The notes under the pieces: generated by a model
Seen by the model: the letters and a program-made list of their open reading frames with translations, nothing else
Told to the model about the DNA's origin: nothing
Database searches by the model: none
Assembly: GCA_046758365.1 (NCBI GenBank)
Contig: JBHIAC010000002.1
Span: 3,836-67,835 of the forward strand
DNA: 64,000 nt
Reading direction: 5' to 3'
DNA from: a bacterium
GTDB taxonomy: Bacteria > Zhuqueibacterota > Zhuqueibacteria > Oceanimicrobiales > Oceanimicrobiaceae
Part shown: positions 1 through 27,352 of the stretch, one piece after another
Numbering within the stretch: the stretch's first letter is position 1
Layout: each line of letters begins with the position of its first letter
Position numbers and translations under genes: made by a program

Positions 1-1
1 A

Positions 2-1015
2 CCGTTAGTTAAAAGTATAATGCCTGAGGGGCAAATTACCTGGCAAATAAAAGCCCCTGATGATCCAACGACAATTTTGGACATAGTTGTTGAAGTGATA
101 GACCGAAATGCTGTTGATGAAAACACGAATCAATTGCCGCCTTTAACACCGACTCCACCTGAGATTGTAATCCCTGTTCAAACACAAGCTATTGGACTTA
201 ATTTGTCGTTATTAAATGATAGAAAACCAACCACGATTGTCCGTGGAGCAACTGACGTACCAATTTTTGGTTTAAAATTTGCAAATACCAGCGATGCAGA
301 CATAGTCATTGAAAATATTAATATGAACGTGAATGATAAAGAGGGAAATAGTATTTCACCCAATTCTGTAATTACACGATTAACTGTGGTAGATTATTTT
401 AATACTAGCGTAATTTTTAGAGAGCTCGTATCATTACCTGAGACTAATCCAATGGTACTTGATTTTAGTCCAGCGATTTCTATTCTGCCAAGCCAATCTC
501 AATCCATTGAGTTTCGGGTAGATATTGCCTCACAAACCGAAACCAATAATTTTCGATTATCCATTGATTCCCCTCAAGATGATATTTTAGCTAAAGATGT
601 GGGATCCGATAGTCTTGTCACCATCAGGGATGATTCATCTGGGTTAACTATTGTTAATGTTTTAACCCCGGGTTTTTCAGTTCTAATCGATCCAAATTTA
701 GAAGCGAGTTTTTTTAATTTTCCAAATCCTTTTGGACAGAACTCAAGAGATATTACAAAATTTAACTACAACCTTACTCAAGATTCTGATATAACAATTA
801 GAATTTATACCCTCTTAGGAGAGTTGGTTTGGTCTATTTCACACAGTGCAAGTGATCCAGAAGGCAGAGTAGGAACCCACGATGGTAAGCAGCAACCCAC
901 AATTGTGTGGGATGGTACTAATGATAAAGGTCAAAAAGTCCTGAACGGGGTTTATGTTGCTGTATTAACCACAAACGACGGGAAGGCTTTAACAAAAATT
1001 GCTTTAGCAAAATAA
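2..1015 (+). CDS. C-terminal part of a large secreted protein with a T9SS type-A/FlgD Ig-like C-terminal domain (5' truncated by window edge)
   Basis: Frame is open to the window start; beta-rich repeats; ends FFNFPNPF...ITIRIYTLLGELV...IVWDGTNDKGQKVLNGVY. Confidence 0.8.
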   Translation, partial: PLVKSIMPEGQITWQIKAPDDPTTILDIVVEVIDRNAVDENTNQLPPLTPTPPEIVIPVQTQAIGLNLSLLNDRKPTTIVRGATDVPIFGLKFANTSDADIVIENINMNVNDKEGNSISPNSVITRLTVVDYFNTSVIFRELVSLPETNPMVLDFSPAISILPSQSQSIEFRVDIASQTETNNFRLSIDSPQDDILAKDVGSDSLVTIRDDSSGLTIVNVLTPGFSVLIDPNLEASFFNFPNPFGQNSRDITKFNYNLTQDSDITIRIYTLLGELVWSISHSASDPEGRVGTHDGKQQPTIVWDGTNDKGQKVLNGVYVAVLTTNDGKALTKIALAK

Positions 1016-1019
1016 TTTT

Positions 1020-3083
1020 GTGAGAAAGATGATGTTAGATAAATTTTTATACAATTTCCTAAAAAGAACCTCAGGGGTGATATTTATTTTAATAATAATT
1101 CTATTCATTTATATACCTACTAACTCTTATGCTCAATCAGGTGTAGGGGGTACCAAGAGCACATTTTTAAGTGTAGGGGCACGAGCACTGGCTTTAGGTA
1201 ATGCTTATGTTGCTCTTTCTGAGGATCCGACGGCTGTTTTCTGGAATCCGGCTGGTCTTGACTATTTAGAGAAAAAAAGCACCAGCTTTTACTATACAAG
1301 TTTGATTGCGGGTTCAAATTTTAGTTTTGTAGGATTTGTGTATCCCACGGTATCTATTGGTAGTTTTGGTTTTGGCTGGTTGAGATTAGGGACCGGGGAT
1401 ATTGAAGAAAGAGGTTCAGACGCTGAACCTGGAGCTAATTTTGATTTCAGTCAACAGCAATTTCTCTTTTCGTATGCCAAGCAACTGAAAAAGAGTTTCA
1501 GCATTGGTCTTACTGTAAAAATTGAGAGTTTCAGTTTTTCTATACAAAACCTCTCAGATTCGGGGGTTGGGGCAGATTTAGGGTTATTATATCGACCAGA
1601 TTTTGATAGTGCAATTTTACGGGACCTTTCATTAGGAATAAATATTCAAAACATCATAAATCCGAAAACTCGGTTGGTGGATATGTCTGAATCATCCCCT
1701 ATAAATTTCAAAATTGGCTTGGCTAAACCAGTTCGATTTGGGGAAGCACGCAATGCATTTACATTGCTGTTTGATATAAATAAAAGCGAAAGTGCACCTA
1801 TGATGTATAACTTGGGGGGCGAGTACTCTTTTCATAATCAAGCCATGTTACGAATAGGGGTAAATGATGGCCAAATTGCATTTGGCGCCGGCGCAAGCTA
1901 TAGTAATTTTCACATCGATTATTCTTTTGGTAAACTGTTTGATGGACCGGATTTTTCTGCAAACCATCGTTTTTCTGTTACTATTGAATTTGGTAAAGGT
2001 AAAACAGAGTTAATCCGTATTGCTCGCGAACGACGTGAAAGAGAAATGCGGCTACAAGTTGAGAATCAGATGTGGTTTTCACGGGAAATTGAATTTAACA
2101 ATAGTATGGAAGAAGGACGCGATAAATATTTTAACGGAGACTACCTGGGTGCATATGTAGACTTCTCAAATGCTTTTGAAGCAGCTAATACTCTTGTGGA
2201 AGTGGCTATGAGGTTAAGAGGTGAAAATATTCAAGACGAAAAAGCCAACATACGAGTTGAAACAGCGAATTCTGCGTTACAAGAATCCCGGACCATGTTA
2301 GAACTTGCCGATGCAAAACGTGATTCTGTTCAGAAAGAAGAGCAGAAACAAATAGTTTTGCAGGCGAAAAAATCGGCTTTGGAACAAGAACTGCAGGACT
2401 TTATTCTAGAGCATCGACAAAAAGGCAATGCCTTTTTCAAGAATGGCGACTTCACTAGAGCTATTAGAGAATGGCAACTAGCTTTAAATAGAATTGCAGC
2501 AAATAAAAGTAATAACTTACCTAACTGGGTCGAAGATGTAAGGCTGCAGATTATAAATGATATTAATACCACCGAAAAGCAACTACAAGGCAACATTAAA
2601 GAAAAGATTAGACAAGCTGACGCCTTAGCACGGAGAGGCGATTACGTTCAAGCCTTGGCTGTGTTAAATGAGTTAAGAGGTGCAGAGTTATCAGAAGAGG
2701 AACGGAGTACTATTAGGAGTAAAATTACAAAAATACAAACACAACTTAATTTTCAACAAAATTATGAGCAGGGTATTCGCCATTATGCTAATAAAGAATA
2801 CAAAAAAGCCATGGAATATTTTGAAAGGGCGCTAAGAATCAAATCCAAAGACCCGAGAGCACGTAAGTTTTTTGAAGACGCCAAAGCCCGGGCCCAGGCC
2901 AAAATTCAGGAAATGCCCCCTGATATACAAGCAAAGTATGTCCGTGCGATTCAGCTCTATCGTCAAAAAATGTTTAAAGAAGCACTGGAAATATTAGAAC
3001 AAATCCGAGTAAAGCAACCGTATAATAAACGAATTTTGGATTTGATTGATCGAGCAAAAGATCGTTTAAAGGAAAATAGATAG
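1020..3083 (+). CDS. PorV/PorQ-family outer-membrane beta-barrel fused to a C-terminal coiled-coil/TPR region
   Basis: Signal peptide, then VGARALALGNAYVALSEDPTAVFWNPAGL (PorV/FadL-like N-terminal motif); barrel ends NHRFSVTIEFG; helical TPR-like repeats follow. Confidence 0.8.
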   Translation: MRKMMLDKFLYNFLKRTSGVIFILIIILFIYIPTNSYAQSGVGGTKSTFLSVGARALALGNAYVALSEDPTAVFWNPAGLDYLEKKSTSFYYTSLIAGSNFSFVGFVYPTVSIGSFGFGWLRLGTGDIEERGSDAEPGANFDFSQQQFLFSYAKQLKKSFSIGLTVKIESFSFSIQNLSDSGVGADLGLLYRPDFDSAILRDLSLGINIQNIINPKTRLVDMSESSPINFKIGLAKPVRFGEARNAFTLLFDINKSESAPMMYNLGGEYSFHNQAMLRIGVNDGQIAFGAGASYSNFHIDYSFGKLFDGPDFSANHRFSVTIEFGKGKTELIRIARERREREMRLQVENQMWFSREIEFNNSMEEGRDKYFNGDYLGAYVDFSNAFEAANTLVEVAMRLRGENIQDEKANIRVETANSALQESRTMLELADAKRDSVQKEEQKQIVLQAKKSALEQELQDFILEHRQKGNAFFKNGDFTRAIREWQLALNRIAANKSNNLPNWVEDVRLQIINDINTTEKQLQGNIKEKIRQADALARRGDYVQALAVLNELRGAELSEEERSTIRSKITKIQTQLNFQQNYEQGIRHYANKEYKKAMEYFERALRIKSKDPRARKFFEDAKARAQAKIQEMPPDIQAKYVRAIQLYRQKMFKEALEILEQIRVKQPYNKRILDLIDRAKDRLKENR

Positions 3084-3091
3084 GTATTACA

Positions 3092-6000
3092 TTGTTTAAA
3101 AGGGTAGAAAAAGAACAATTAAAAGTACCGGCCCATATTGATTATTTGGGCGACTTACGCGATTTTGTCACCCAGGTTGGTAAAAAATATAGATTTTCAG
3201 ATAAGCTCATTAATGCATTTAAATTAGCTATAGACGAAGCCGCCACTAACATCATACGGCATGCCTACCGAGAAAATAATGGCTTTATTACTGTGCGTTC
3301 TATTGTAAAAGAGAACAGTCTTACCATATCACTCATTGACCAGGGGACTTATTTTGATCCAAAACGAGTTAAAGAACCAGATCTGAGGCGTTATATTGAT
3401 ATTGGGAAAAAAGGGGGCTTGGGCATTTTCATAATGCGCAAGGTAATGGATGAAATTGACTATCGCAGAACCGAAGAAGGTAATGAACTGAGAATAACCA
3501 AATATCGAGAAACCCCACAAAAGAAAAAACTTTTTACCACTGTGTCCTCTATTCCTCTTTCTATCAAAGCTAAATATTTCTTTCGGACTATTGCTATAAT
3601 TACTCTAATGATTACGGTGGGTTATTTTTATTTTTACATCAAAACAGATGATTATGTCATTTCTGAGTTAATTATTTCCGGCCGAGCTACCTGCAGTCAA
3701 ATAATAAACCGCATTAGTTCAGCACCAACAGAAGAGTTGGTGTTTATCGAAGATATTGTTCATCCTTTATATGAAGAAAATAAAGATAAAATCTACCGTT
3801 TATCTGTTGAAGATAGTACAGGAATTATTGTTTACAGTTCAAATTTGTCTGAAATGTTAAGGCAATTTATCCGTCCCAGTAGAGTTGAATTAATTGAACC
3901 AGGAGTTTATAGGTATTACTTAGTTCAGGGAGTAAAAGTCTTTGAATTTGAATATCCAATCAAAATAAAGGATACTAACAAATATTATGGAAAGACTCAT
4001 GTATTCCTGTCAACAGAATCGGCAGATAAAGCCATAAGTGCCATACGTCTTAATGACTTAAAATTAGCCTTGTTTATTTTAGGTCTTAGTACTACCGGTG
4101 TAGCAGTGTTGATTTATCTAGTTATGATTCCTTTCAGTAAACTCGCTGATTGGGTCAAGGAATTGGGTCACGGAGAAATTGATGATGAAATTGATATTGA
4201 TGCTTCCACTGAAATTGGAGAAATTGCTCAGGCATTTAGTGATATTACCCAAAAGTTTCGAGAATCTCAAAAAAACTTAGCTGATCAGGAACGTCTTCAG
4301 AAAGAGATGCAGGTAGCTCAAGAAATTCAACAAACCCTGCTCCCTATGGAGTTTCCTGAATTGGAAGGATATGAAATTGCCTCCTATTATGAAGCTGCGA
4401 AAGAGGTAGGCGGTGATTATTATGATTTTGTCGAGGTAGATAAAGATTCTTTGGGTATAGCGGTGGCTGACGTTTCTGGAAAAGGCGTTCCTGGGTCTCT
4501 TGTAATGACCATGATTCGAACGGCTCTTCGAACAGAAGCTCGGGGGGTTAAAGATGCTGCCGAAGTACTTTCTCGGGTAAATACATTTGTCAGTGGAGAC
4601 ATCAAAAAGGGTATGTTTGTCACTATTTTCTATTTAATAATTGACTCCAAAAAACGTCGTCTAAATTACGCCAGCGCCGGACACAACCCTATGATTTTAT
4701 ATAGAGGGAGTACGAAGAAAACTTACTATCTGAATCCAAAAGGATTTCCTATTGGAATTCAATTACCTCAAAGAGATATATTTCGTAATTATATTGAATC
4801 AGATACGATTCAATTAGCTGAAGATGATATCCTTCTGGTTTATACCGATGGTATAACAGAAGCTATGAACTCTAGACGAGAGCTTTTGGGTGAAGAACGT
4901 TTACTCAAGATATTAAGGGAATTTGGACATCTCCCAGTAAATTCTTTTGTGGACAAGCTGAAAGAAGGGATTTATTCCTTCACAGAGGGGAGTCCGCAGT
5001 TTGATGACATTACCTTAGTAGCGATTAAAGAAAAATCATCTCGAGAAAAAGATGAACTCCGAAGAGCAAAAGAAGCGCACAAATTAATTGGTGAAGAAAT
5101 GAGTATTCGAGAGGCCTGTGAAACCGTCGGTATTACAACTTACGCCTATTATAATAAATACAAACGCATCTTCGAAGAAGAAGGCATTGAATCTTTTGAA
5201 ATTGACCCAGATGTATCCGTAGAAGCAAAGCATCTTAGTATTGAAGAAAAAACCAGAATATTTGATATTATTGCCAGCCATCCGGAATATGGAGCCAGTC
5301 GAATTAGCACGGAACTTAATACAGAGAAGTATGGTTTTACCCAAATTAGCGAAAGTAAAATATACGAAGAGTTGGTAAGAAATAGACTAAACACGCGTCA
5401 ACTTAGGGAGGCATTTGTTGAGAAAGGTAAAAGGGGTCGCAGAAGACTAAAGCCACCTGGAACACCTCTGTTAACTCTTGATGGTAAGTTAATAATAGAT
5501 CGACAATTGGATATTGCAGAAAACGAAGAAAAGTTCACACCTCAAAACATTAGACCAAATGAAAAAGAGGAAACAACCGAAGATCAGGAAGTAAAAACTG
5601 ATCAACGCATTGAGACAAGTCATAAAACATTTGAACCTTCAATCACAGAAGAGAAAATTGATGAAACATCTGTTACTAATATCACGGAGTCAGAGATAGA
5701 AGCAGAAGCTCTAATTGATTCTTCCATCGAGGAGATTTTATCGAAAGATTATATAGAAGAAACAGAAACCCAAGATAAAGCGCCAGAGATGAGTACCGAA
5801 ATCATTAAAGAAGAAAACCAGAAAGAAGTTAGAGAAATGGAAGATTCTCAAGATTTAATTGAAGAATTTGTTCCAGAAACTAATTTATCTGAAGCAATTT
5901 CCGACTTAGATGAAGAACAGAATATTCTTTCACAATTTGAAGAAGAGATTCCTGAAACTTCACAAAATGATGAAATATCATTTGAAGAGCTTTTTGAAAA

Positions 6001-6727
6001 TGTCGATTTTTCAAATGATACTCATGAAGATAAGCTAAATTCTTCAGATATTGAAGAGTTGGTAGATGAAGACCTATCGACTTCTTCCGTAGAAGAATTA
6101 CTTGCCCATGATTCGATTGAGGATTTCAGTGCTAATACCGATATTACTTCTGAAGAAATAATTAGTTCTAACGTTGATAATGATGCAGATGAATTCGAGG
6201 AAGATAGTGTCTCGTTTTCCGATTTGCTCAAAACTTTAGATGATGAGATGGTCTATTTTTCAAAACAGTATGAAAATAACCAAAGTCAATCAAAGGATTT
6301 ACAAACCGTAAAGCATGATTCAGAAACAGAAGAACCTACTCAAGAGTTTGATAAATCTAGTACTCATTTAAATAAAAAAGAAATGTTATTAATAAGTGGA
6401 ATCAAATACTATAAGAATAAAGATTATGAAAATGCTATAAAAGAGTTTAAAAAAGTTATTGATATTTATCCCGATTTTAAAGAGGCTTATAGTATATTAG
6501 GAAACGCCTATTTTAGAAATCAAATGTACACCGAAGCTGCTACGGCTTATGAGAGAGTGAAGCAAATGGATCCCAATGATATAACGGCTTATGAAAATAT
6601 GGGAGTCATTCATGCAAATCGAGGAGAATATACCCAAGCGATAGAAGAATGGAAAAAAGTTCTTGAATTAAATCCAGAAAGAACCGATATAAAGAAAAAG
6701 ATCAAAAAAGCTTTACAGAAGATGTAA
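3092..6727 (+). CDS. Multidomain partner-switching protein: RsbW-like HATPase, 2 TM with periplasmic loop, HAMP, SpoIIE/PP2C phosphatase, HTH region, acidic linker, TPR
   Basis: LAIDEAATNIIRHAY, DQG, KGGLGIFIMRKVMDE (RsbW-type kinase); VGGDYYD, ADVSGKG, SAGHNP, YTDGITEA, DDITLV (PP2C); C-terminal TPRs. Confidence 0.9.
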   Translation: MFKRVEKEQLKVPAHIDYLGDLRDFVTQVGKKYRFSDKLINAFKLAIDEAATNIIRHAYRENNGFITVRSIVKENSLTISLIDQGTYFDPKRVKEPDLRRYIDIGKKGGLGIFIMRKVMDEIDYRRTEEGNELRITKYRETPQKKKLFTTVSSIPLSIKAKYFFRTIAIITLMITVGYFYFYIKTDDYVISELIISGRATCSQIINRISSAPTEELVFIEDIVHPLYEENKDKIYRLSVEDSTGIIVYSSNLSEMLRQFIRPSRVELIEPGVYRYYLVQGVKVFEFEYPIKIKDTNKYYGKTHVFLSTESADKAISAIRLNDLKLALFILGLSTTGVAVLIYLVMIPFSKLADWVKELGHGEIDDEIDIDASTEIGEIAQAFSDITQKFRESQKNLADQERLQKEMQVAQEIQQTLLPMEFPELEGYEIASYYEAAKEVGGDYYDFVEVDKDSLGIAVADVSGKGVPGSLVMTMIRTALRTEARGVKDAAEVLSRVNTFVSGDIKKGMFVTIFYLIIDSKKRRLNYASAGHNPMILYRGSTKKTYYLNPKGFPIGIQLPQRDIFRNYIESDTIQLAEDDILLVYTDGITEAMNSRRELLGEERLLKILREFGHLPVNSFVDKLKEGIYSFTEGSPQFDDITLVAIKEKSSREKDELRRAKEAHKLIGEEMSIREACETVGITTYAYYNKYKRIFEEEGIESFEIDPDVSVEAKHLSIEEKTRIFDIIASHPEYGASRISTELNTEKYGFTQISESKIYEELVRNRLNTRQLREAFVEKGKRGRRRLKPPGTPLLTLDGKLIIDRQLDIAENEEKFTPQNIRPNEKEETTEDQEVKTDQRIETSHKTFEPSITEEKIDETSVTNITESEIEAEALIDSSIEEILSKDYIEETETQDKAPEMSTEIIKEENQKEVREMEDSQDLIEEFVPETNLSEAISDLDEEQNILSQFEEEIPETSQNDEISFEELFENVDFSNDTHEDKLNSSDIEELVDEDLSTSSVEELLAHDSIEDFSANTDITSEEIISSNVDNDADEFEEDSVSFSDLLKTLDDEMVYFSKQYENNQSQSKDLQTVKHDSETEEPTQEFDKSSTHLNKKEMLLISGIKYYKNKDYENAIKEFKKVIDIYPDFKEAYSILGNAYFRNQMYTEAATAYERVKQMDPNDITAYENMGVIHANRGEYTQAIEEWKKVLELNPERTDIKKKIKKALQKM

Positions 6728-6772
6728 TTGTAAATAATTTACAAATCAATCAGAATTTATAGTTTGTTTCTA

Positions 6773-6801
6773 TTGACTTTTAATCTTAATTCTATTATAT
6801 T
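6773..6801 (+). promoter_or_regulatory. Sigma70-type promoter of the STAS gene
   Basis: TTGACT-17 nt-TATATT, then AGGAG RBS before ATG 6851. Confidence 0.6.
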
Positions 6802-6850
6802 TAAAACTATTATGTTAGTAATAATAAAATAACTTTACTAGGAGTTTTCC

Positions 6851-7546
6851 ATGGAAGGTATACAAGTATCAGTAGAAAAAGCTGGCTCGAAACAGAACAT
6901 TGCTGTAATAAAAGTTGGTGGGTATATAGATACTACCACTTCGGCTGAACTTGAGCATTCTTTATCTTCTATTTTAAAATCTAATTGTTATAATATAATT
7001 ATTGATTTAGGTAATGTGGATTACATCAGCAGTGCGGGCTGGGGATTATTTATAAGTGAAATTAAGGGTATTCGTGAAAAAGGTGGCGACCTGAAGTTGG
7101 TGCGAATGATACCTGATGTTTATGAAGTATTTGAACTTTTGGAGTTCCACTACATTCTTAAAGCCTTTGATCGGTTGCAAGAAGCTATTAGTGATTTTGA
7201 TCTTGCTGCACCATCCGAGTTGCCGCTAAAATCCCGAATCGTCAACGATAATAGAAGTAAAAGGGATGTGCATGTAGTATCCAAGACTGAAACCAATGTT
7301 TTGCAGGCGGAAGCTGATAAAGAAGCCGCTTTAGAGTCTGAAATAGAAACGATAGAAGAAAAAATCCGTCAAATTGTTATAGAAAATCCTGAAGCGGGTA
7401 CTTTGCAAATTATAAAAACACTTAACAGTCCTCGATTTGGTAATATAAAACTTGGTTGGTTTGAAATGAGAAAATATCTAAAGCAATTAAATATAGATTC
7501 CAAAAAGAAAAGACTTGCTTATTTCAAACAAAAAACTTTTAGCTAA
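6851..7546 (+). CDS. STAS anti-anti-sigma factor (RsbV/SpoIIAA-like) with an extra C-terminal HTH-like domain
   Basis: GYIDTTTS, IDLGNVDYISSAGWG (phosphoacceptor Ser motif); about 110 aa extension. Confidence 0.9.
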   Translation: MEGIQVSVEKAGSKQNIAVIKVGGYIDTTTSAELEHSLSSILKSNCYNIIIDLGNVDYISSAGWGLFISEIKGIREKGGDLKLVRMIPDVYEVFELLEFHYILKAFDRLQEAISDFDLAAPSELPLKSRIVNDNRSKRDVHVVSKTETNVLQAEADKEAALESEIETIEEKIRQIVIENPEAGTLQIIKTLNSPRFGNIKLGWFEMRKYLKQLNIDSKKKRLAYFKQKTFS

Positions 7547-7700
7547 ATATTAACATAAAAATACATCGATAGTAGCCAGTATTATTTACCTGTAAGAACC
7601 TCCTTCCTCAAATCCGCATTTAGAAAAATAGTTTGATTTTACTCTCTTTTTTTCTTAATATTAGTTTCATCTGATAATTAGGTGTCGATTTTATGTATAA

Positions 7701-9822
<2,122 letters not shown>

Positions 9823-9892: not shown

Positions 9893-9976
9893 GGAGGGCT
9901 ATGTCTAATTGGTAAGACAGCGGTCTTGAAAACCGCCGCCCGAAAGGGCTTGGGGGTTCGAGTCCCTCGCCCTCCG
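9893..9976 (+). tRNA. tRNA-Ser(TGA)
   Basis: Acceptor GGAGGGC/GCCCTCC; anticodon arm GCGGT-CTTGAAA-ACCGC; long variable arm GCCC-GAAA-GGGC; GGTTCGAGTCC. Confidence 0.95.
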
Positions 9977-10052
9977 CTTAGGATACAAGGGGATCTAATG
10001 AAATAAAAAAATAAAAATTCTAATTTTGGAATTAAATTTTGACTAATCTTTC

Positions 10053-10142
<90 letters not shown>

Positions 10143-10170
10143 TTTTTTGACCATTTATTGAAAAAAGCGT

Positions 10171-11649
10171 TTGGTATTTAACTTGGAACCTTCAAAAGTT
10201 GTAAAAGTTAGAGTTCGTTTTGCGCCAAGCCCTACTGGCTATTTACATGTGGGTAGTGCTCGGACAGCTATATTTAATTGGCTGTTTGCCCGAAAATATC
10301 ATGGAAAATTCCTGCTAAGAATCGAGGACACCGATGTAGCTCGTTCTGGTGAGGAGATGGTGCAAGCCATTTTCAATGGTCTTAGATGGTTGGGCTTGGA
10401 TTGGGATGAAGAGCCGGTATTTCAATCTGAGAGATTTCACGTCTATAAGCAATATGCCGAAAGGCTTGTTGAGGAAGGCAAAGCCTATCGGTGTTATTGT
10501 ACCCAGGAGAGATTGCAGGCAGTCAGAGAAAACGCTCTCCGAGAGAAAAAAGAGGTGAAATATGATCGCTACTGCCTGAATTTAACTGAGACTGAAAAAG
10601 CTGCCCACGAAAAAGAGGATGTGCCTTATGTCATAAGATTTAAGGTTGAAGACGGTTTTACATCATTTGTGGATGAAGTCTACGGCCAGTTAAGATTTGA
10701 CAATAATCAGATTGATGATTTCGTCATACTCCGTTCTGATGGGATTCCAACCTATCACTTAGCGGTGGTGGTGGATGATAAAGAAATGAACATCACCCAT
10801 ATTATCCGAGGGGATGACCATCTTACCAATACACCTAAGCAAGTTCTTTTATATAAAGCCTTTGGTTGGGAATGTCCCGTATTTTCTCATGTCCCTTTGA
10901 TTTTAGGTCCAGATCGACAGCGCTTGAGCAAACGACATGGTGCAACGTCTATCGAGGAATATGAAAAAGCTGGTTATTTGCCGGAAGCTGTATTAAATTT
11001 TTTGGCTCTCCTCGGTTGGTCATCTGGCGATGATAGGGAACTATTCACTCGAGATGAATTAATTGAAGCATTTGATCTTTCCGGAATATCTAAAAAGAGC
11101 GCCGTGTTTGATGAAAAGAAATTGGAATGGATGAACGGCCAGTATTTGAATAAAATAGATAACGAAGAGCTTCTGCAACGAGTACAGTTGTATTTGACGG
11201 ACGCTGGATTTATTACCCCCAATTTTGTAAGTGAGAATAAAGAGTACTTATTAAGAATTGTGGGACTTCTAAAAACCAGAATTAGACGATTGACTGAATT
11301 TTCTAAGCTCTCAAGATATTTTTTCACCGAACCTGAAGAATATGAAGAAGTCGGCGTTCAGAAACATTGGAAGGACCCGATGTTAATTGAACGATTTTAC
11401 TCACTAATTGATCGACTTGCTGAAATTCAAGAATTCTCACAAGGAAACATAGAAAAAGCAATTCGCAGTCTTGCTGAGCAGATGAATATCAGTGCTGCCA
11501 AGCTGATTCATCCCATGCGATTGGCTATTACTGGCTATTCAGCAAGTCCGGGGCTGTTTGAAATCATGGAAATATTGGGCCAGGAAACTGTTCTGCGCCG
11601 TTTACGAAAAGCCATCGAATATTTGAAGGGGAGTTCTTTAGCCCTTTAG
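10171..11649 (+). CDS. gltX: Glutamate--tRNA ligase
   Basis: RVRFAPSPTGYLHVG (HIGH), LRIEDTD, IRGDDH, RLSKRHG (KMSKS). Confidence 0.97.
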   Translation: MVFNLEPSKVVKVRVRFAPSPTGYLHVGSARTAIFNWLFARKYHGKFLLRIEDTDVARSGEEMVQAIFNGLRWLGLDWDEEPVFQSERFHVYKQYAERLVEEGKAYRCYCTQERLQAVRENALREKKEVKYDRYCLNLTETEKAAHEKEDVPYVIRFKVEDGFTSFVDEVYGQLRFDNNQIDDFVILRSDGIPTYHLAVVVDDKEMNITHIIRGDDHLTNTPKQVLLYKAFGWECPVFSHVPLILGPDRQRLSKRHGATSIEEYEKAGYLPEAVLNFLALLGWSSGDDRELFTRDELIEAFDLSGISKKSAVFDEKKLEWMNGQYLNKIDNEELLQRVQLYLTDAGFITPNFVSENKEYLLRIVGLLKTRIRRLTEFSKLSRYFFTEPEEYEEVGVQKHWKDPMLIERFYSLIDRLAEIQEFSQGNIEKAIRSLAEQMNISAAKLIHPMRLAITGYSASPGLFEIMEILGQETVLRRLRKAIEYLKGSSLAL

Positions 11650-11694
11650 CCACGCAAATTGGCTGGGGTAGACTTGTTAGGTGAAAAGGTCGCA

Positions 11695-11793
11695 TGGAGT
11701 TTTGGAGTATTGGATCAATGGAGTGATGAAATGATGAATATACTTTTTCATAAATTTGCATTACTCCAAATACTCCATTATTCAATTACTCAA
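11695..11793. repeat. Palindromic intergenic element built from 8-nt units (TGGAGTAT... / ...ATACTCCA)
   Basis: tggagttt-tggagtat-tggatcaa-tggagtga mirrored by ttactcca-aatactcca-ttattcaa-ttactcaa. Confidence 0.65.
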
Positions 11794-11867
11794 CCAGTAA
11801 TAAAGATAAAACACTTTGAGGAGAAAATAAAAATAGTTTATAGCAATTCTGAGGCATTTACAAAACT

Positions 11868-11938
11868 TGGGGTGTCGTTCAACGGCAGGACACACGGCTC
11901 TGGACCGTGGAATCGGGGTTCGAATCCCTGCACCCCAG
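11868..11938 (+). tRNA. tRNA-Gln(CTG)
   Basis: Acceptor TGGGGTG/CACCCCA; CACGG-CTCTGGA-CCGTG; GGTTCGAATCC. Confidence 0.96.
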
Positions 11939-11944
11939 CTACCC

Positions 11945-12018
11945 GCGCCCGTAGCTCAATTGGATAGAGCATCTGACTTCGGATCAGAGGGTTGAGGGTT
12001 CGAGTCCTTCCGGGCGTG
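11945..12018 (+). tRNA. tRNA-Arg(TCG)
   Basis: Acceptor GCGCCCG/CGGGCGT; TCTGA-CTTCGGA-TCAGA; GGTTCGAGTCC. Confidence 0.95.
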
Positions 12019-12039
12019 CTAAAAAAAATCAATAACATA

Positions 12040-20248: not shown

Positions 20249-21703
20249 TTAAATCTGTCGTTCCTTCCAGCGACCTCGGCGGAAAATTAAGATACCCACA
20301 ATCCCTACCATTGATTCTGCTATTATAATGGCGAGAAAAACACCTCTTTCAGCGAAACCCAGCGGTAAAGCAAGTCCATAAGCAAGGGGAATCTCAAGCA
20401 GCCAAAAGCAGAAGAAATTGATAATCGTCGGGGTGGTGGTATCCCCGGCTCCGTTGAATGCTTGTGTCATGACCATGCCGTAGGCATAAAATAGATAGCC
20501 ATAACTAATAAAGCGTAAGCAATCGGCTCCAATAGCCACGACAGCAGGTTCACTGGTAAATAAACGGACTAGGAACTCAGAAAAAGAGATGAAGATAATT
20601 GCAATCATGCCTAAAAACACCATGTTGATTATGCCAGACATCCAAACTGAACGCTCGGCTCGTTCAGGTTTTTGGGCGCCAAGGTTTTGACCCACCAAAG
20701 TAGCGGCAGCATTGCTCATGCCCCAGGAGGGGAGGATTGAAAAGACAATGATGCGCACAGCAATGGTATACCCTGCCAGAGCCTCGCTTCCGAAAACTGC
20801 CATGATGCGAACTAGTCCAACCCAGCTTGATGTTGCAATCAGAAATTGTCCGATTCCTCCCAGTGAAACACGCAGTAGCCGTAGCATTACATCTGGATTT
20901 AGCCGTAGCTGACTGCGTTGTACCTGAATTCGGCTGGTGCCGCGAAAGAGTACCCACAGTTGGAAGAGAACGCCAATGCCTCGACCAATGGTTGTTGCGA
21001 CGGCTGCGCCTGTGACACCCAATTGTGGGAACGGTCCCAGCCCAAAAATGAAGCACGGATCAAGGATGATATTAATAAGATTGGCGAGCCACAGGATGCG
21101 CATAGCAATTGCGGCGTCCCCTGCACCACGGAATACGGCATTGATAATGAACAAGAGCATGATAATAGCATTACTACCGATTAAAACTGCCGTGTACTTG
21201 TATCCCGATTCAATAATACCTATTGCGGCGCCCATGAGTTGCAGAAGATTTGGTGCGAAGAAAACGGCGATAGCGGTGAATGGTAGTGACACGGCAATCC
21301 CAACGCCTATTGCTTGTACGGCAGCAATAGAAGCGCCTGCTCTATTCTTCTCACCGATTCGACGGGCGACCATAGCCGTGGTCGCCATACTGAGGCCTAC
21401 AGCAATAGCGTACACTATAGTGAGCATCGACTCGGTTAAACCAACCGTTGCCACGGCATCCGCACCAAGTTTTGACACGAAAAAGATATCCACAACCGCA
21501 AACACCGACTCCATAACCATCTCTAAAACCATTGGAATGGAGAGGAGCAAGATGGCACGGCCTATGCTGCCTTCGGTGAAATCTTGTTCTGTGCCAAGGA
21601 TTGCTTCGCGCAGGTCTTTCCATAAAGTGACCAGTCGGTTATTTGTTTTAGACTCAAGAACCGCTGACACGGTTGTGGGATTGTTGTTTAATGGCTTGTT
21701 CAT
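20249..21703 (-). CDS. MATE-family efflux transporter
   Basis: About 12 TMs; [33 protein letters not shown]. Confidence 0.95.
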
Positions 21704-22482
21704 ATTTTCCCTTTATGTTAAATGTTACTCTACGTTCTAGCATTGATGCGGGTTTCACTCCCCTAATGCTACAGAATAAATTAATTTTAGTTTTTGAAAA
21801 AAATGAAATTGAAAGGGAGGATAATTCGCTTAGAATTACTGAATTAATTCAGTGAGGATTACTTCACAAATTGTGGGTGTCAAAAAATTATTTTTGAGGA
21901 TCTTTTATAATGCAGTTTGCTTAATTTAACGATAAAAGCTTGTTGCTTTTTTAAAATTTTAACATTAAGCGAATTATCAACCCTCGTACTTTACAATTAC
22001 CGCTGGAAAATCAATTTGCATATGTAATCTCCTTCGGATTAGAACTTCATTAACTTGTTTTTTATTATTGCACTAAAAATAATAAAAAATTTTAAATAAG
22101 CAAGTCAAATTTTGAAGAAAATGAATTAATTTTTCAATTAAATGTCAAAAATACCAGTCAAAAAATTATAAATAATTAAAATTTATATAGAACGTAAAAA
22201 TAGATTTCTGTTTTGGTAAATATGTTGAGTTAATTAAACGCCACGATAATTAGTTAAATAGTCACTATCAATCTTCCGGTTGTATATTTAAGTATAACTT
22301 AATAACAATGATTCAATTGTATTAATTTAGAATCCCAAAAAATTTAAAGTGCATAATATAAATAAAGCTATATTGAGATAGATTTTTTAGTTGCATATTT
22401 TTTTATTTCTAATTAATTTAAAAGAATCCGGGCAACATTCTATAAAATTATTTTGAAAATTTGAATAATAGGTTAAAATATT

Positions 22483-23202
22483 ATGAATATTACTAATTCT
22501 GAAATCAACATAATTTCTTCTAAAGATCTAGATATAAGATTAAAAGCCTTTGAATTTGAAAAACATTTGAAAAAGTTTTTTACACTTCCTCAAATAATTC
22601 CAATGCCAGATGATTTTCATCCTGAAGCTCCGCGTATCATTTTTTCTACTCCCCATGGTCATTCAACCTTGACGATAAGTCAAGTAAATTTTAGTTTGAA
22701 AACAAGATATGATGGGGATTTTACAGAAAATTTAAATAAATGTATCGAATATCTAGATGAAAGAATTAATCTTGTTTTTTCTATGTTGAAAGAATCTCGC
22801 ATTACTCTCTATTATATTGGCGTAATTTTTAATTTTGAAATACCTTTTACGCAAAAAAATAATCCTGTTGTTGCCTTATCACAAAAGTTTCTTAATTATA
22901 AACTAAACTTCATCAATAGCCTATTTGATGTAAGCTTCAAATTCACAACTTGTTATGATAACACCTTTTATAAGAATTTAATATTTAAAAACTACAGACG
23001 GTATCAAAAGAAATCAATCCCAAAACCAAGCCCGGCATTTTTGGACTTAGAAGAAGAAGGTATTCAAGTTCAAGCAGATATTAATGATCGCTTTGCTTTT
23101 AATATAAACAAAGATTATGAAACTAATGAAGAGGTTCTTTCAAAAATTTATGATATATTAAAAAATGCATATGAAGAAATACCAAAAATGATGGAGAATT
23201 AA
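22483..23202 (+). CDS. Hypothetical protein, TIGR04255-like (gene 1 of AT-rich cassette)
   Basis: PRIIF, L.ISQ.NFSL...Y, YIGV.F, DIN motifs recalled for that family. Confidence 0.5.
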   Translation: MNITNSEINIISSKDLDIRLKAFEFEKHLKKFFTLPQIIPMPDDFHPEAPRIIFSTPHGHSTLTISQVNFSLKTRYDGDFTENLNKCIEYLDERINLVFSMLKESRITLYYIGVIFNFEIPFTQKNNPVVALSQKFLNYKLNFINSLFDVSFKFTTCYDNTFYKNLIFKNYRRYQKKSIPKPSPAFLDLEEEGIQVQADINDRFAFNINKDYETNEEVLSKIYDILKNAYEEIPKMMEN

Positions 23203-23487
23203 ATGTTAGATGTGTTAGGTGAAACAACTTCAACTTCAAACCTGTATGACAAACATTTCATCGTTTCTGCATTATCACAGCCTCCTTTTCTGTTACTAGA
23301 TTTGGATTATACTGACAAATCAATTGATTCATCAAAAATTTCTGATTCAGCATCTTTGGAATCAAATTTTGATAGTGAAAGGGAATCTAAATTAGAAATT
23401 CTCATGTCAATTTTTCCGGGTATAAGAGAAATGACGGAAAAAGAGGCTGAAGAGTATCAGGAATTTTTAGAAGCGTATTTTGACTGA
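23203..23487 (+). CDS. Small acidic hypothetical protein (gene 2, antitoxin-like)
   Basis: ATG directly follows the gene 1 stop; Ser/Asp/Glu rich; 3' end overlaps gene 3. Confidence 0.55.
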   Translation: MLDVLGETTSTSNLYDKHFIVSALSQPPFLLLDLDYTDKSIDSSKISDSASLESNFDSERESKLEILMSIFPGIREMTEKEAEEYQEFLEAYFD

Positions 23488-24040
23488 GCAAGGTATGTTG
23501 AAATCAATAGGGCGAATTATTGAAGAAATGATCCCTTCTGTTTCAGCAGAAACCCTTAAGGAATTCAAAAGAGATTTTCAAAGATTTAAATTCGACTCAA
23601 GCGCTTTTACTTCTATGCCAAAAGGCAATGTAATTTTTCAAGGTGATATAATTAAAGATATGCCTTTTACTTTTTATAATAAAGAGGGTGTTCAAAAAAA
23701 TAGAAATTCCTGTGGTATGATGTTATCACACACATGTGACATGGCAAATCTTAAGAAGAATGTAATATTTGCCTTTTGTATGCCTGCGTCCCATTATAAA
23801 TTATCCAATTTCGAAGATGCGAAAAATCAACGTATAACAAATTTGATGTTTTTACCTACTCAACCTATATTAGGTGATGATTTGTTAGTTGATTTTAATT
23901 TAGTCACCACTTATTCGAGTCAATTCGTAAATGGAATTATTAAAAATAATAATCACTTAGCAACATTAAAAGATTTAGGAAATTTTCTCTTCCTAATGAA
24001 ACTAACAATTCACTTTTTTCGTGTTGAATTCCCGCATTGA
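23480..24040 (+). CDS. Hypothetical protein with MazF/PemK-like pattern (gene 3)
   Basis: QGDII.D.PF, GMMLSHTCD, VIFA, LLVDFNLVTT, LATL. Confidence 0.55.
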   Translation: MTEQGMLKSIGRIIEEMIPSVSAETLKEFKRDFQRFKFDSSAFTSMPKGNVIFQGDIIKDMPFTFYNKEGVQKNRNSCGMMLSHTCDMANLKKNVIFAFCMPASHYKLSNFEDAKNQRITNLMFLPTQPILGDDLLVDFNLVTTYSSQFVNGIIKNNNHLATLKDLGNFLFLMKLTIHFFRVEFPH

Positions 24041-24043
24041 GCT

Positions 24044-27000
24044 TTAAACCTCATGCAAATATTTTTCCTTTTCCAGTGCTTTGCCATCAGGCTCGGGTGC
24101 GATCTCAAGTGCACGCCTTTCTCTGGTAATAATTCGACCTTTTTCATCCATGAAGCGTTTACCCATTATGGAGCGCTTGATATCTCCGAGAATAGCATAG
24201 AGACAGGGAACCAAAAAGAGGGTCAAAATCGTTCCCACTGAAAGGCCCCAAACCATAACATTAGCTAAAGGTCCCCAAACATCTGATTTACCGCCAATAC
24301 CGATGGCCATGGGAAGCAGGCCGAAAACTGTGGTGATGGTAGTCAAAAGGATAGGACGGAGGCGGAGTTTGCCAGCCATAAGAATCGAATGCCAGCGCCG
24401 TACCCTGCGTGCTCGAGCTTCGTTGATAAAACTAATGAATACCAACGCATCATTTACCGCCACACCTGCCAGGGCTACCAGACCGTAAAGATTGTTGATG
24501 TTGAACGGACTGCCAATAAAGAGCAGACCCATGGTGGCGCCCCAAAAGGCAAAGATGATAGCCATGAAAATAATGAGCGGCTGGAAAAAAGATTTGAACT
24601 GCCCACCTAAAATGATATACATCAGTATAAGTCCCACCAGAAAAAGCTGGCCGAGGTCGCTGAAGGCTTGTTTGAATTCTTCAAATTGGCCTCGGAAGAC
24701 TAAATCGTAACCGGAGTATCGTTTACTGATATCGAAAAATCTGCGTTGAAGCTCCTTATTAACTTTCAACGCCGTGGTTTTGGATTTGTCGATATCCGCT
24801 TTGACGGTTATGGCCCGTTTGAGTTCATCGTGTTTGATAGAAGTATAACCCTGTTTTGTATTTAGCCGCGCCACGTCTTTTAAAGTAACCAGATGACCGA
24901 AAGGGGTCGCAATTTTCATGTTTTCCAAATCGGAAATATTTTGACGGCTGTCTTCTTTGTATTTTACTACCACGTCGATTTCCTCATCGCCATCTCGAAA
25001 TTCCGTAGCTACGCCGCCATCAAAGGCATAGTGTACGGTGGAGGCGATTTGAGCTACATTCAAACCCACCAGAGCCGCTTTCTCCTCATCCACAACGATT
25101 TGCAGCTCCCTTTTGCCCGGCACAAAATCATCGCGGACATCGAATACACCAATCATGCTTTTCAGCTCATTTTTTATCAACTCAGCCACCTCTTCCAACT
25201 CATCAAGATAGTTGCCGCGGACTTTAACCTCCACAGGTGCCCCGGTGGGTGGGCCGTGATCAAATACTTTAAATTCAAGAGATTTGATACCAGCGATAGA
25301 ATTTATTTGTCCCCTTAAATCTGCAATGATGTCATCAATACTACGCTTGCGTTTTTCTTTGTTTGTCAATTCCACTATGAGCTGCCCGACCGACGGTTTG
25401 AAAAACCACTCATCCTCTCTTTGCTGCAATCCAGAATTAGCCACCACATTTACTAATTCTGTCTCGGATAACGCAGAGATTATTTTTTCAACTTTTTGAA
25501 TGACTTCATCAGTGATTTCTAATTTAGTTCCTTCAGGTAAATCAACAAATATGAACACTCGCGGAATTTCTTCACTGGCAAACATGTCAATGCCCACCAC
25601 CCAAATCAATGGAATACTGACTAAAATGATGAGGGTTGTAATGCCCAAAACCTGATAGCGGTATCGTAGAAACTTAACTAGATATTTTATATAGAGTCTT
25701 CTGAGCTTGTTAAATCTAATGAACCCTTCTCTAATATGGTTATGTTTACGGCTCCACTCGGCAATATGGGAAGGTAAGATGAAGAATGCTTCGAATAGCG
25801 AAGCCAACAGAGCTAATGTTACGACAATAGGGACAATTTTTAGAAATTGCCCGATAATTCCGCCCATGAGCATTAGAGGCAGGAAAGCGGCGATGGTGGT
25901 CAAAGAAGAGGAAATCACAGGCATAGCCACCTGCTTTGTCCCAATTATAACCGCCTCCTTGGGTGGGTGGCCTTCTTGCATGTGGCGGTAACAGTTTTCA
26001 ATGATGACAATAGCATCATCTACAATCATACCCAGAACCAGCACGAGGCCAAACAGAGCACTCCCACTTAAGCTGGTGCTGGTGTATTTCATAAACAGAA
26101 ATGTGAACATGAAGGTAACCGGGATGCCAATGGCCGCAAAAATAGCGTTTCTTAGCCCTAAAAAGAAATAAAGGCAGACCACCACTAAAATCATGCCAAG
26201 CCAAGCGTTGTTACGAAGGACGTTCAGGATTTCTTTGATGCGGATGGACGTGTCATTGATTACATTGATGGAAACATTCGCTGGCAAACCCCGAGTTTCC
26301 CATTGGGGCAGGCGTTCCCTGCGGTATTTTTCAACTAAATCTTTAATTTCATCAATAATTTTAATAGAATTGCCCTGCTTCTTTTTTGCCACTGTGAGCG
26401 TTACACTTGGTTCGCAATTAAAACGTGAAATGACTTCGGACTCCTCAAAGGTGTCGCGCACTTCGGCAATGTCTTCCACTCGCACATGGTGACCCATTGG
26501 ATTGGCACGTAAGATGATTTTCTTTACTTGTTCGATCTTATCAATTTCGCCAACCGTTCTCACGATATATTCCCAACGTCCCATTTTGATGTCGCCAGCC
26601 GACAGATCCAGATTTTTGCCGCGAATGGCCTCCATGACTTGCGAAAGAGCTAAGTCGTAGCTTTGCAATTTCTCGGGGTCTACCTCCACCCAGATTTCTC
26701 GATCCCGCACCCCTGCAATTAAACACTTGGAAACATTATTAATTTCTAAAATATCGTCTCGCAGATCCTCGGCAAGTTTTTTCATTTCTATTTCGGAGAT
26801 ATTTCCACTCAGCACCACATTCACCATAGGAATATGATCCTGAGTGGTGAACTCGGTTATAATCGGGTCTTCGGCCCCTTCCGGCAGCTCTACTTTTTCA
26901 ACTTCTGTGCGCACGTCCTGCAGTCGTTTATCAAGCTCATCATCGGACATAGTCTCAAATTTTATCCACACAAAGGAAGCATTTTCCCGTGAAATGGAGG

Positions 27001-27241
27001 TGATATTGTCAATGCCTTCTACATCCCTTACCTCTTTTTCAACTTCATTGGTAATCAATTTTTCAGTATCTTCTGGCGATAAACCCGGGGCAGGTGTCCA
27101 GACGAAAATCCACGGGAAAGAAACTTCTGGCATCATCTCCCGCGGCAGGGTAAACAACGAATAGCTGCCGAGTACAATCACAGCAATCATGATCATGTTC
27201 ACCAGAACGGGATTTTTAATGGAAAACTTTGCTATGGACAT
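24044..27241 (-). CDS. RND efflux permease (AcrB family)
   Basis: Start MSIAKFSIKNPV; GMIVDDAIVIIEN; RLRPILLTTITT. Confidence 0.95.
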   Translation of the reverse strand: MSIAKFSIKNPVLVNMIMIAVIVLGSYSLFTLPREMMPEVSFPWIFVWTPAPGLSPEDTEKLITNEVEKEVRDVEGIDNITSISRENASFVWIKFETMSDDELDKRLQDVRTEVEKVELPEGAEDPIITEFTTQDHIPMVNVVLSGNISEIEMKKLAEDLRDDILEINNVSKCLIAGVRDREIWVEVDPEKLQSYDLALSQVMEAIRGKNLDLSAGDIKMGRWEYIVRTVGEIDKIEQVKKIILRANPMGHHVRVEDIAEVRDTFEESEVISRFNCEPSVTLTVAKKKQGNSIKIIDEIKDLVEKYRRERLPQWETRGLPANVSINVINDTSIRIKEILNVLRNNAWLGMILVVVCLYFFLGLRNAIFAAIGIPVTFMFTFLFMKYTSTSLSGSALFGLVLVLGMIVDDAIVIIENCYRHMQEGHPPKEAVIIGTKQVAMPVISSSLTTIAAFLPLMLMGGIIGQFLKIVPIVVTLALLASLFEAFFILPSHIAEWSRKHNHIREGFIRFNKLRRLYIKYLVKFLRYRYQVLGITTLIILVSIPLIWVVGIDMFASEEIPRVFIFVDLPEGTKLEITDEVIQKVEKIISALSETELVNVVANSGLQQREDEWFFKPSVGQLIVELTNKEKRKRSIDDIIADLRGQINSIAGIKSLEFKVFDHGPPTGAPVEVKVRGNYLDELEEVAELIKNELKSMIGVFDVRDDFVPGKRELQIVVDEEKAALVGLNVAQIASTVHYAFDGGVATEFRDGDEEIDVVVKYKEDSRQNISDLENMKIATPFGHLVTLKDVARLNTKQGYTSIKHDELKRAITVKADIDKSKTTALKVNKELQRRFFDISKRYSGYDLVFRGQFEEFKQAFSDLGQLFLVGLILMYIILGGQFKSFFQPLIIFMAIIFAFWGATMGLLFIGSPFNINNLYGLVALAGVAVNDALVFISFINEARARRVRRWHSILMAGKLRLRPILLTTITTVFGLLPMAIGIGGKSDVWGPLANVMVWGLSVGTILTLFLVPCLYAILGDIKRSIMGKRFMDEKGRIITRERRALEIAPEPDGKALEKEKYLHEV

Positions 27242-27266
27242 CTGTCTTGCTTCTAAAATAATATTT

Positions 27267-27352
27267 TTTGGCACACGGATTTTCACGGATTAGTAAATGA
27301 TTAAAAGTTTAATCCGTGTTCATCCGTTCAATCTGCGTGCATTCGTGTGCTA
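27267..27352. repeat. Palindromic intergenic element (CACGGAT repeats)
   Basis: gcacacggattttcacggatt ... aatccgtgttcatccgtt...tcgtgtgc. Confidence 0.6.

Follow-up and report, generated by a model that had tools for sequence, protein, structure and literature searches.

The 64,000-nucleotide stretch of bacterial DNA analyzed here (the window) carries an AT-rich islet of three closely packed plus-strand genes, encoding proteins of 239, 94, and 181 amino acids (aa), with a MatE gene on one side and an AcrB/HlyD/OEP operon on the other. This cassette is best explained as a horizontally acquired copy of a widespread three-gene module found in prophage accessory slots and defense islands. There is an even chance that the trio acts as a three-part toxin-antitoxin-like module for abortive infection or phage exclusion. 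Evidence computed for the module includes its conservation across genomes, exchange of its first gene, its genomic contexts, a MazF-like profile signal in gene 3, and a predicted interface between genes 2 and 3. An initial annotation, made from the sequence alone, had proposed a toxin-antitoxin-accessory module. By sequence comparison, structure prediction, and analogy, that reading is plausible: the trio is conserved, a gene 2-gene 3 contact is predicted, and gene 3 has a moderate likeness to MazF, but gene 1 does not match TIGR04255 and gene 3 has no PemK model match.

The trio is a conserved, tightly packed unit, and the lack of conservation that the initial annotation had allowed for was not found. 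A gene 3 alignment of 18 sequences, used in a single scan of species-representative genomes, yielded 19 loci from Bacillota, Spirochaetota, and one acidobacterial (Holophagales) metagenome-assembled genome (MAG). The three-gene layout is identical in 18 of these loci and interrupted by an insertion sequence in the 19th. A gene 1 homolog lies immediately upstream in 16 of the 19 (phmmer E values of 3e-13 to 1e-43), and each of the 18 intact loci has a middle open reading frame (ORF) of 82-122 aa. Junction spacings range from -17 to +19 nucleotides (nt), and 15 of the 19 rows show an overlap between genes 1 and 2, usually of 4 nt. At the interrupted locus (L003:3955-5022), which is the sole broken copy of the 19, genes 1 and 2 are absent, and what remains is a gene 3 homolog that lacks its first ~42 residues and adjoins an IS3-family transposase gene (E = 1.4e-31). 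The trio is also found in three phage genomes, those of a Leptospira LE1-type phage, with proteins of 248, 99, and 216 aa, and of the Pseudomonas phages VW-6S and Dobby. A second copy of gene 3 follows the trio in Robertmurraya andreesenii, where L007:5003-5600 and L007:5980-6577 form a 598-nt repeat that is 100% identical; this is either a tandem duplication of very recent date or an artifact of assembly.

The first position in the module can be held by proteins of two families that, by sequence comparison, are unrelated. Gene 1 was initially called TIGR04255-like. As a family assignment this failed, with no match of the window protein to the NCBIfam TIGR04255 model at E ≤ 1 (cutoff of 30 bits). 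Among 19 gene 1 family sequences plus one fragment, a single one scored against that model, at 15.4 bits and out of register, and hhalign comparison of the two families gave probabilities of 0.2% with an 11-sequence alignment, 0.9% with a wider profile, and at most 4.9% with half-domains. A two-lobe duplication common to both families found no support. What does stand is that the slot itself is occupied by true TIGR04255 proteins in 2 of the 19 loci, both from Halanaerobium (L005 and L008, scoring 108 and 116 bits against the cutoff of 30), and in phages VW-6S (E = 2.2e-11) and Dobby (E = 2.6e-8) when their true starts are used with a TIGR04255 profile of our own. Despite the lack of sequence relation, these proteins share with gene 1 its position, a similar length (241-250 aa), and the same downstream pair. 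They are also found beside other neighbors, as on the Thermus plasmid pTB1, where the gene next to TIGR04255 is not gene 3 and where VapC, methylase, and cas6 genes lie nearby. Because TIGR04255-linked copies fall in two separate places on the gene 3 tree, the first-gene type has been exchanged at least twice; the window and phage branches of this tree are long, and its deeper placements are unsure. Two of the phage genes are misannotated. The reading frame at L034:1483-1854 of Dobby is recorded as a truncated gp01 and becomes a TIGR04255 protein of ~250 aa when read from an upstream start, and the 46-aa "integrase" at L032:3146-3456 of VW-6S becomes in the same way a gene 2-like protein of ~105 aa.

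Gene 1 itself matches phrog_22817, a family of unknown function (E = 2.4e-23), and has few close relatives (four, self included). Residues P42, P50, R51, D77, C87, Y90, N165, N201, and Y212 are invariant in all 18 aligned family members. The window protein has no meaningful match in Pfam, NCBIfam, or PADLOC, and none to Pfam, SecB-like domains included, was found for 19 further family members. A Foldseek comparison, one of the checks proposed at the outset, used a weak AlphaFold2 model of gene 1 (predicted local distance difference test, pLDDT, of 49.5) and returned nothing from the PDB or BFVD at E ≤ 0.001.

Gene 3 belongs to a large family. At E ≤ 0.001, its profile (full HMMER) recovers at least 462 cluster representatives, of which 127 also pass E ≤ 1e-10, the clusters being drawn at 50% identity and nearly all representatives being 185-220 aa long. 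The proteins are called "hypothetical protein" wherever they are named. Close relatives of the window copy are few (five, including itself), and it matches phrog_4575, again of unknown function (E = 6.3e-20). Residues Q49, D51, C81, G162, K169, and R176 are invariant in 82 of 82 aligned sequences, and conservation is nearly as high (75-79 sequences) at P14, G50, D82, and an Asn at 111/112. The window copy has no meaningful match in Pfam, NCBIfam, or PADLOC, and no real Pfam match was found for any of the 82. A hit to BpuJI_N (E = 0.002, 17.9 bits, cutoff of 25) was rejected because it occurred in just one member, and a 1398-aa protein (P0102) with six stretches matching the gene 3 profile is a repetitive surface-type protein and was taken as spurious.

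Profile comparison suggests that gene 3 probably has a distant MazF/CcdB-type core with a different functional surface, which is not the same as membership in that family. The MazF/PemK alignment comprised 11 sequences, ten from annotated plasmid genes plus mazF of E. coli K-12. Compared with it by hhalign, the 82-sequence gene 3 family gave a probability of 83.5% (P = 8.3e-6, score of 38.8, 47 columns), with gene 3 residues 45-96 pairing with MazF residues 4-51, in the register that the initial annotation had described. None of 120 column shuffles of the MazF alignment reached this score (mean of 11.6, maximum of 17.1); the same held for the reversed profile, at 21.6, and for four unrelated alignments, at 24.7 or less. 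Eight random halves of the gene 3 family gave 14.7-85.6% with the register unchanged, and the value was 91% with the PemK-rich half of the MazF set. Under relaxed settings, the alignment is colinear across the entire MazF domain, leaving gene 3 with an N-terminal extension of ~45 residues and an insertion at residues 97-117. The elements brought into line by this alignment are a GD-I strand, a hairpin with a Gly, a hydrophobic-LS strand, and an (A/V)P strand. The gene arrangement is also reminiscent of MazE-MazF and PemI-PemK, in which a small upstream partner gene sits tight against a toxin-sized downstream gene.

Gene 2 is short and acidic, as first noted, with an isoelectric point (pI) of 4.1 and a net charge of -14. 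The front of the protein is variable and a C-terminal motif is conserved (alignment A6): in window numbering, F71 is present in 15 of 18 sequences, R75 in 16, E81 in all 18, and Y85 in 14, and position 77 is Phe in 15 of the 18 and Met in the window protein. Used directly as a query, window gene 2 finds just four middle ORFs (E = 1e-4 to 9e-4); it has no PHROG match and no meaningful match in Pfam, NCBIfam, or PADLOC.

Structure prediction supports binding of the conserved C-terminal part of gene 2 to gene 3. Modeling of the complex, which had been proposed along with the initial annotation, paired residues 50-94 of gene 2 (alignment of 18 rows) with gene 3 (alignment of 82 rows) and produced a score of 0.82, compared with 0.00 for the best control. 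A mark of 0.82 is reached by 58 of 80 solved complexes and by 2 of 110 mismatched pairs, rates that hold only roughly here because our own alignments were used. The runs share at least 90% of contacts, with a pLDDT of 75-76 for the partner and 83-84 for gene 3 in the complex. Predicted interface residues of gene 2 are 59, 62-63, 66-77, 81, 84-86, 88-90, and 92-94. On gene 3, the interface involves the hairpin at residues 58-70 (F58), residues 96-116 (112-116) and 136, and the C-terminal helix at 168-176, so that the invariant K169 and R176 are among the predicted contacts. This is the geometry expected of an antitoxin that covers an active surface, and MazF and PemK likewise have a partner whose placement on the toxin resembles that predicted here.

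Two further observations concern the ends of gene 2. Gene 2-type N termini are often hydrophobic and signal-peptide-like, with a maximum 15-residue hydropathy of 1.9-2.0, compared with 1.37 for the window copy; examples are found at L007:4680-5003, L015:5657-5980, L013:5670-6011, and L032 at about 3150-3456. In addition, the gene 2 tail (..LFP..R.FT.EE..) resembles by eye the "LFPSI.PYT.E" at the N terminus of gene 3 (window positions 23398-23484 and 23495-23600). This likeness is not significant: 7 of 82 gene 3 sequences scored above zero, compared with 0-4 in 20 rounds of shuffling, six of the seven weak matches falling at residues 3-7 of gene 3, and the hhalign P value was 0.06.

In the window, the three ORFs are genuine genes and the islet is foreign-looking, because of its contrast in composition and the length of its open frames. 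The GC content is 0.294 for the cassette and 0.400 for the whole window, and GC at third codon positions (GC3) is 0.20-0.24 in the three genes, compared with 0.47-0.48 in the MatE and AcrB genes. An open frame of 239 codons has p = 1.4e-9 at a stop-codon probability of 0.082, and the longest frame in 1000 shuffles of the region was 131 codons. The opposite orientation of the AT-rich genes to both neighbors, and the noncoding AT-rich DNA of ~750 nt ahead of them, were correctly recognized from the start (Table 1). A single ORF of at least 40 aa touches this spacer (21673..21855), which is presumed to hold the cassette promoter. The spacer has no Rfam match at E ≤ 1; promoter-like sites number 23, a modest excess over the shuffle mean of 14.4, and nothing of note emerged when the islet was scanned for Rfam families, repeats, and terminators. 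No match to the islet DNA was found among phages. Four tRNA genes (Ser-TGA, Ser-GCT, Gln-CTG, and Arg-TCG) at positions 9893-12019, ~10 kb from the cassette, have no apparent link to it.

The junctions were described at first as abutting and overlapping. Genes 1 and 2 do abut, the TAA of gene 1 being followed by the ATG of gene 2 with no nt between them, but genes 2 and 3 overlap only if the TTG at 23480 is the start of gene 3. Because five close homologs of gene 3 (180-183 aa) align from an ML/MF start that corresponds to the ATG at 23495, the likely junction is not an overlap but a 7-nt spacer with AAGG in front of it. At the far end, the last nt of the gene 3 TGA is 24040, and the stop codon of the convergent RND gene, on the minus strand, spans 24044-24046, leaving the 3 nt between stops that had been reported.

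Table 1. Features of the cassette and its surroundings in the window, and genes lying near the trio at other loci (L numbers)
Feature	Position or locus	Strand	Remarks
Gene 1	22483..23202	+	ORF, 239 aa
Gene 2	23203..23487	+	ORF, 94 aa
Gene 2 conserved C-terminal segment (residues 66-94)	23398..23484	+	From alignment and complex model; predicted gene 3 interface
Gene 3	23495..24040	+	181 aa from ATG 23495; ORF 23480..24040 is 186 aa from TTG
Gene 3 core (residues 41-181)	23615..24037	+	Colinear with whole MazF/PemK domain (hhalign); confident for residues 45-96 only
AT-rich spacer 5' of gene 1	21704..22482		779 nt, GC 0.239; presumed promoter region
MatE exporter gene	20249..21703	-	Neighbor upstream of cassette
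AcrB-family pump gene (RND)	24044..27286	-	Neighbor downstream; in an operon with HlyD-type adaptor and outer-membrane factor (OEP), also -
Prophage lysis cassettes	L001, L013		Within 4 genes of trio
Integrases	L003, L004, L017-L019		Within 4 genes of trio
Transposases	L003, L007, L008		Within 4 genes of trio
GmrSD	L002, L015		Within 4 genes of trio
HepT-like ribonuclease (RNase)	L006		Within 4 genes of trio
AAA_15/AAA_21 and PD-(D/E)XK genes	L008		Within 4 genes of trio
Type I restriction-modification (R-M) genes	L017-L019 (SIR2 also in L019)		Within 4 genes of trio

The trio turns up in the prophages and defense islands of several phyla (Table 1). Defense or mobile genes lie within four genes of it in 12 of the 19 loci, and its GC content is at least 0.05 below that of its flanks in 12 of 19 rows. 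In phage VW-6S, the trio lies after the CI repressor and before the integrase, as cargo of lambda-type immunity regions does. In the P2-like phage Dobby, whose gp03 matches the gene 3 profile (E = 4.5e-31), the trio adjoins the portal gene. PMC9122126 describes the defense hotspot of P2 as the cos-proximal region from gpA to the portal gene gpQ; because the Dobby copy is beside the portal gene, it would sit at this hotspot, in the manner of old/tin-type cargo. Two features set the module apart from known prophage defense hotspot cargo, namely the lack of any match in PADLOC 2.0.0 and the position of the window copy, which is outside any recognizable prophage. In the Leptospira LE1-type phage, the trio is directly 5' of hxsA-D, a set of radical-SAM His-Xaa-Ser genes (L031:4295-7570). 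A search of plasmids (PLSDB) with gene 1 and a gene 3 homolog found no match.

Particular arrangements were seen at some chromosomal loci. In three rumen Treponema-type spirochete MAGs, two from Treponema and one from Spirochaetaceae (L017, L018, and L019, ~1-9500 in each), the trio lies within a type I R-M locus, with hsdS genes on one side, a tyrosine recombinase on the other, and several extra hsdS copies, an arrangement that looks like a specificity shufflon; a SIR2-like gene is present further along in L019. In a Bacillota MAG (L012:3183-4497), the trio follows a run of genes for yycI, an MBL-fold protein, and a SPOUT methyltransferase of rlmH type. In staphylococci, mobile elements are known to insert at the 3' end of rlmH.

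No catalog or paper was found that names the trio as a system, and an earlier description is possible. In PADLOC-DB 2.0.0, the three window proteins have no match at E ≤ 1, and 60 of 61 family members have none at E ≤ 0.01; the remaining hit, of one 95-aa family member to JetD (E = 4.6e-4), was taken as chance. Full-text searching found no paper on TIGR04255, its InterPro names, phrog_22817, or phrog_4575. Among the papers listed for tripartite toxin-antitoxin systems, phage defense, and MazF, none describes the trio, and the available part of PMC13586616 contains no mention of MazF or PemK. The initial failure to match the cassette to a named system is thus upheld within PADLOC 2.0.0 and the literature searched.

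Among the closest analogs are toxin-antitoxin-chaperone (TAC) modules, including the anti-phage system CmdTAC, which resemble the trio in being three-gene operons that combine an accessory protein with a small antitoxin in the middle or an adjacent position. According to PMC11618068, the CmdTAC chaperone senses a phage capsid protein, and its release leads to loss of the antitoxin; this could serve as a workable model for gene 1. The trio differs from TAC modules in its accessory-antitoxin-toxin order, in a gene 1 without SecB-like or other Pfam matches, and in a gene 3 that is not of the ADP-ribosyltransferase, HigB, or MqsR type.

Toxicity, the target, the role of gene 1, and any anti-phage effect would, by inference, take the following form. 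Gene 3 would be the effector, its ~45-residue N-terminal extension joined to a core distantly like the MazF/PemK barrel. Because the residues that it conserves (Q49, G50, D51, C81, D82, K169, and R176) are particular to its own family, gene 3 probably lacks MazF RNase chemistry. Gene 2 would keep the effector in check by covering this conserved surface with its own conserved C-terminal segment. Gene 1 may be an accessory protein that stabilizes or controls gene 2, or that senses infection in the manner of the TAC and CmdTAC chaperones, with a TIGR04255 protein taking its place in other lineages. A bolder version of this proposal, tentative and on the unlikely side, is that the trio is an undescribed three-part anti-phage system in which an interchangeable sensor (the gene 1 family or TIGR04255) acts through a gene 2 clamp on a MazF-fold effector with a new active site (Q, D, C-D, K, and R) and a new target or chemistry.

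Several results weigh against a toxin-antitoxin-like module. The MazF likeness is moderate and confident over 47 columns only, and hhalign drops to 1.4% with the five-sequence subfamily of the window protein and to 8.5% with rows 1-6 of the MazF set. R29 and T52 are the catalytic Arg and Thr of E. coli MazF, and both face unconserved positions of gene 3 when aligned by hhalign: the "RP" that precedes the LS strand of MazF lies opposite unconserved positions followed by a Gly, and the "T" after the conserved Pro also lies opposite unconserved positions. The MazF/PemK layout first read in gene 3 is present as a moderate, reproducible profile likeness, but without the catalytic residues and without a PemK match in Pfam, either for gene 3 (E ≤ 1) or for the 82 family members (E ≤ 0.01). 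Profile searches of the PDB found only chance-level matches for all three gene families and TIGR04255, which leaves the gene 3 family with no PDB relative by sequence and no MazF, Kid, or CcdB chain at E ≤ 10. A stand-alone AlphaFold2 model of gene 3 built from five sequences has a pLDDT of 33.8 and a predicted template modeling score (pTM) of 0.20, and an Atlas search gave unnamed clusters only (0.94-0.95), with no usable named match for residues 41-181. Gene 3 has a pI of 4.7-6.7 and is acidic in 18 of 19 rows, the window copy alone being at 9.0; acidity is less expected of an RNA-binding toxin and so counts against a toxin. Gene 2-type proteins have a pI ≤ 5.0 in only 11 of 19 rows. By Pfam, gene 2 differs from MazE and PemI in having no AbrB-type or other DNA-binding domain, and none was found in any of the three genes; the constant third gene is a further difference from these pairs. 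As for context, the count of loci with defense or mobile genes close to the trio has no matched background, and the window copy is flanked by efflux genes with no adjoining mobile or defense gene.

Other readings of the trio account for parts of this evidence. Genes 2 and 3 could be an ordinary two-part toxin-antitoxin pair that confers addiction to, or stabilization of, mobile DNA, with gene 1 linked to them and doing a separate job. The complex model predicts their binding without gene 1, an unrelated family can replace the first gene, and the TIGR04255 gene of pTB1 has a neighbor other than gene 3. This reading is nevertheless unlikely. A first gene of ~240 aa is found in 18 of 18 intact genome loci and in 3 of 3 phage copies, usually with a 4-nt overlap into gene 2, and the only gene 3 copy lacking it there is the 598-nt identical repeat beside a full trio.

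Quite unlikely is a reading in which gene 3 is a cysteine-based enzyme (Q49, D51, C81, K169, and R176) and no toxin, gene 2 its substrate or precursor peptide, and gene 1 a helper, the MazF likeness then reflecting no more than a small barrel common to both or a motif arisen by chance. The invariant Cys-Asp pair and the missing MazF catalytic residues would suit such an enzyme, as would its acidity in nearly all rows. A variable front, with a hydrophobic signal-like stretch at several loci, and a conserved tail would suit a precursor, and the tail is predicted to lie on the conserved surface of gene 3. However, no peptidase or modification-enzyme family in Pfam or NCBIfam matches, the conserved unit includes no export or immunity genes, and its contexts are those of defense cargo. 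Just as improbable is a prophage accessory module with some other role, such as lysogeny control or host takeover, that neither kills the host nor excludes phages. The adjoining lysis cassettes, CI repressor, and integrases are consistent with this role; the matching PHROG families are all of unknown function, and no defense catalog model matches. Many copies are nonetheless outside recognizable prophages: some lie within type I R-M loci or next to GmrSD, and others, the window copy among them, stand by themselves between housekeeping genes.

The gene 3 family, with at least 462 clusters and no name, domain, structure, or paper found for it, is locked into a three-gene unit that is carried in phage defense slots. 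If the trio is a defense system, the catalog of such systems gains a widespread member. A MazF-like barrel would then have been reused with a different chemistry, and the sporadically distributed TIGR04255 proteins, as well as PHROGs 22817 and 4575, would acquire a first function. The swap of the first gene on a constant gene 2-gene 3 pair would amount to a natural experiment on the exchange of sensors between systems.

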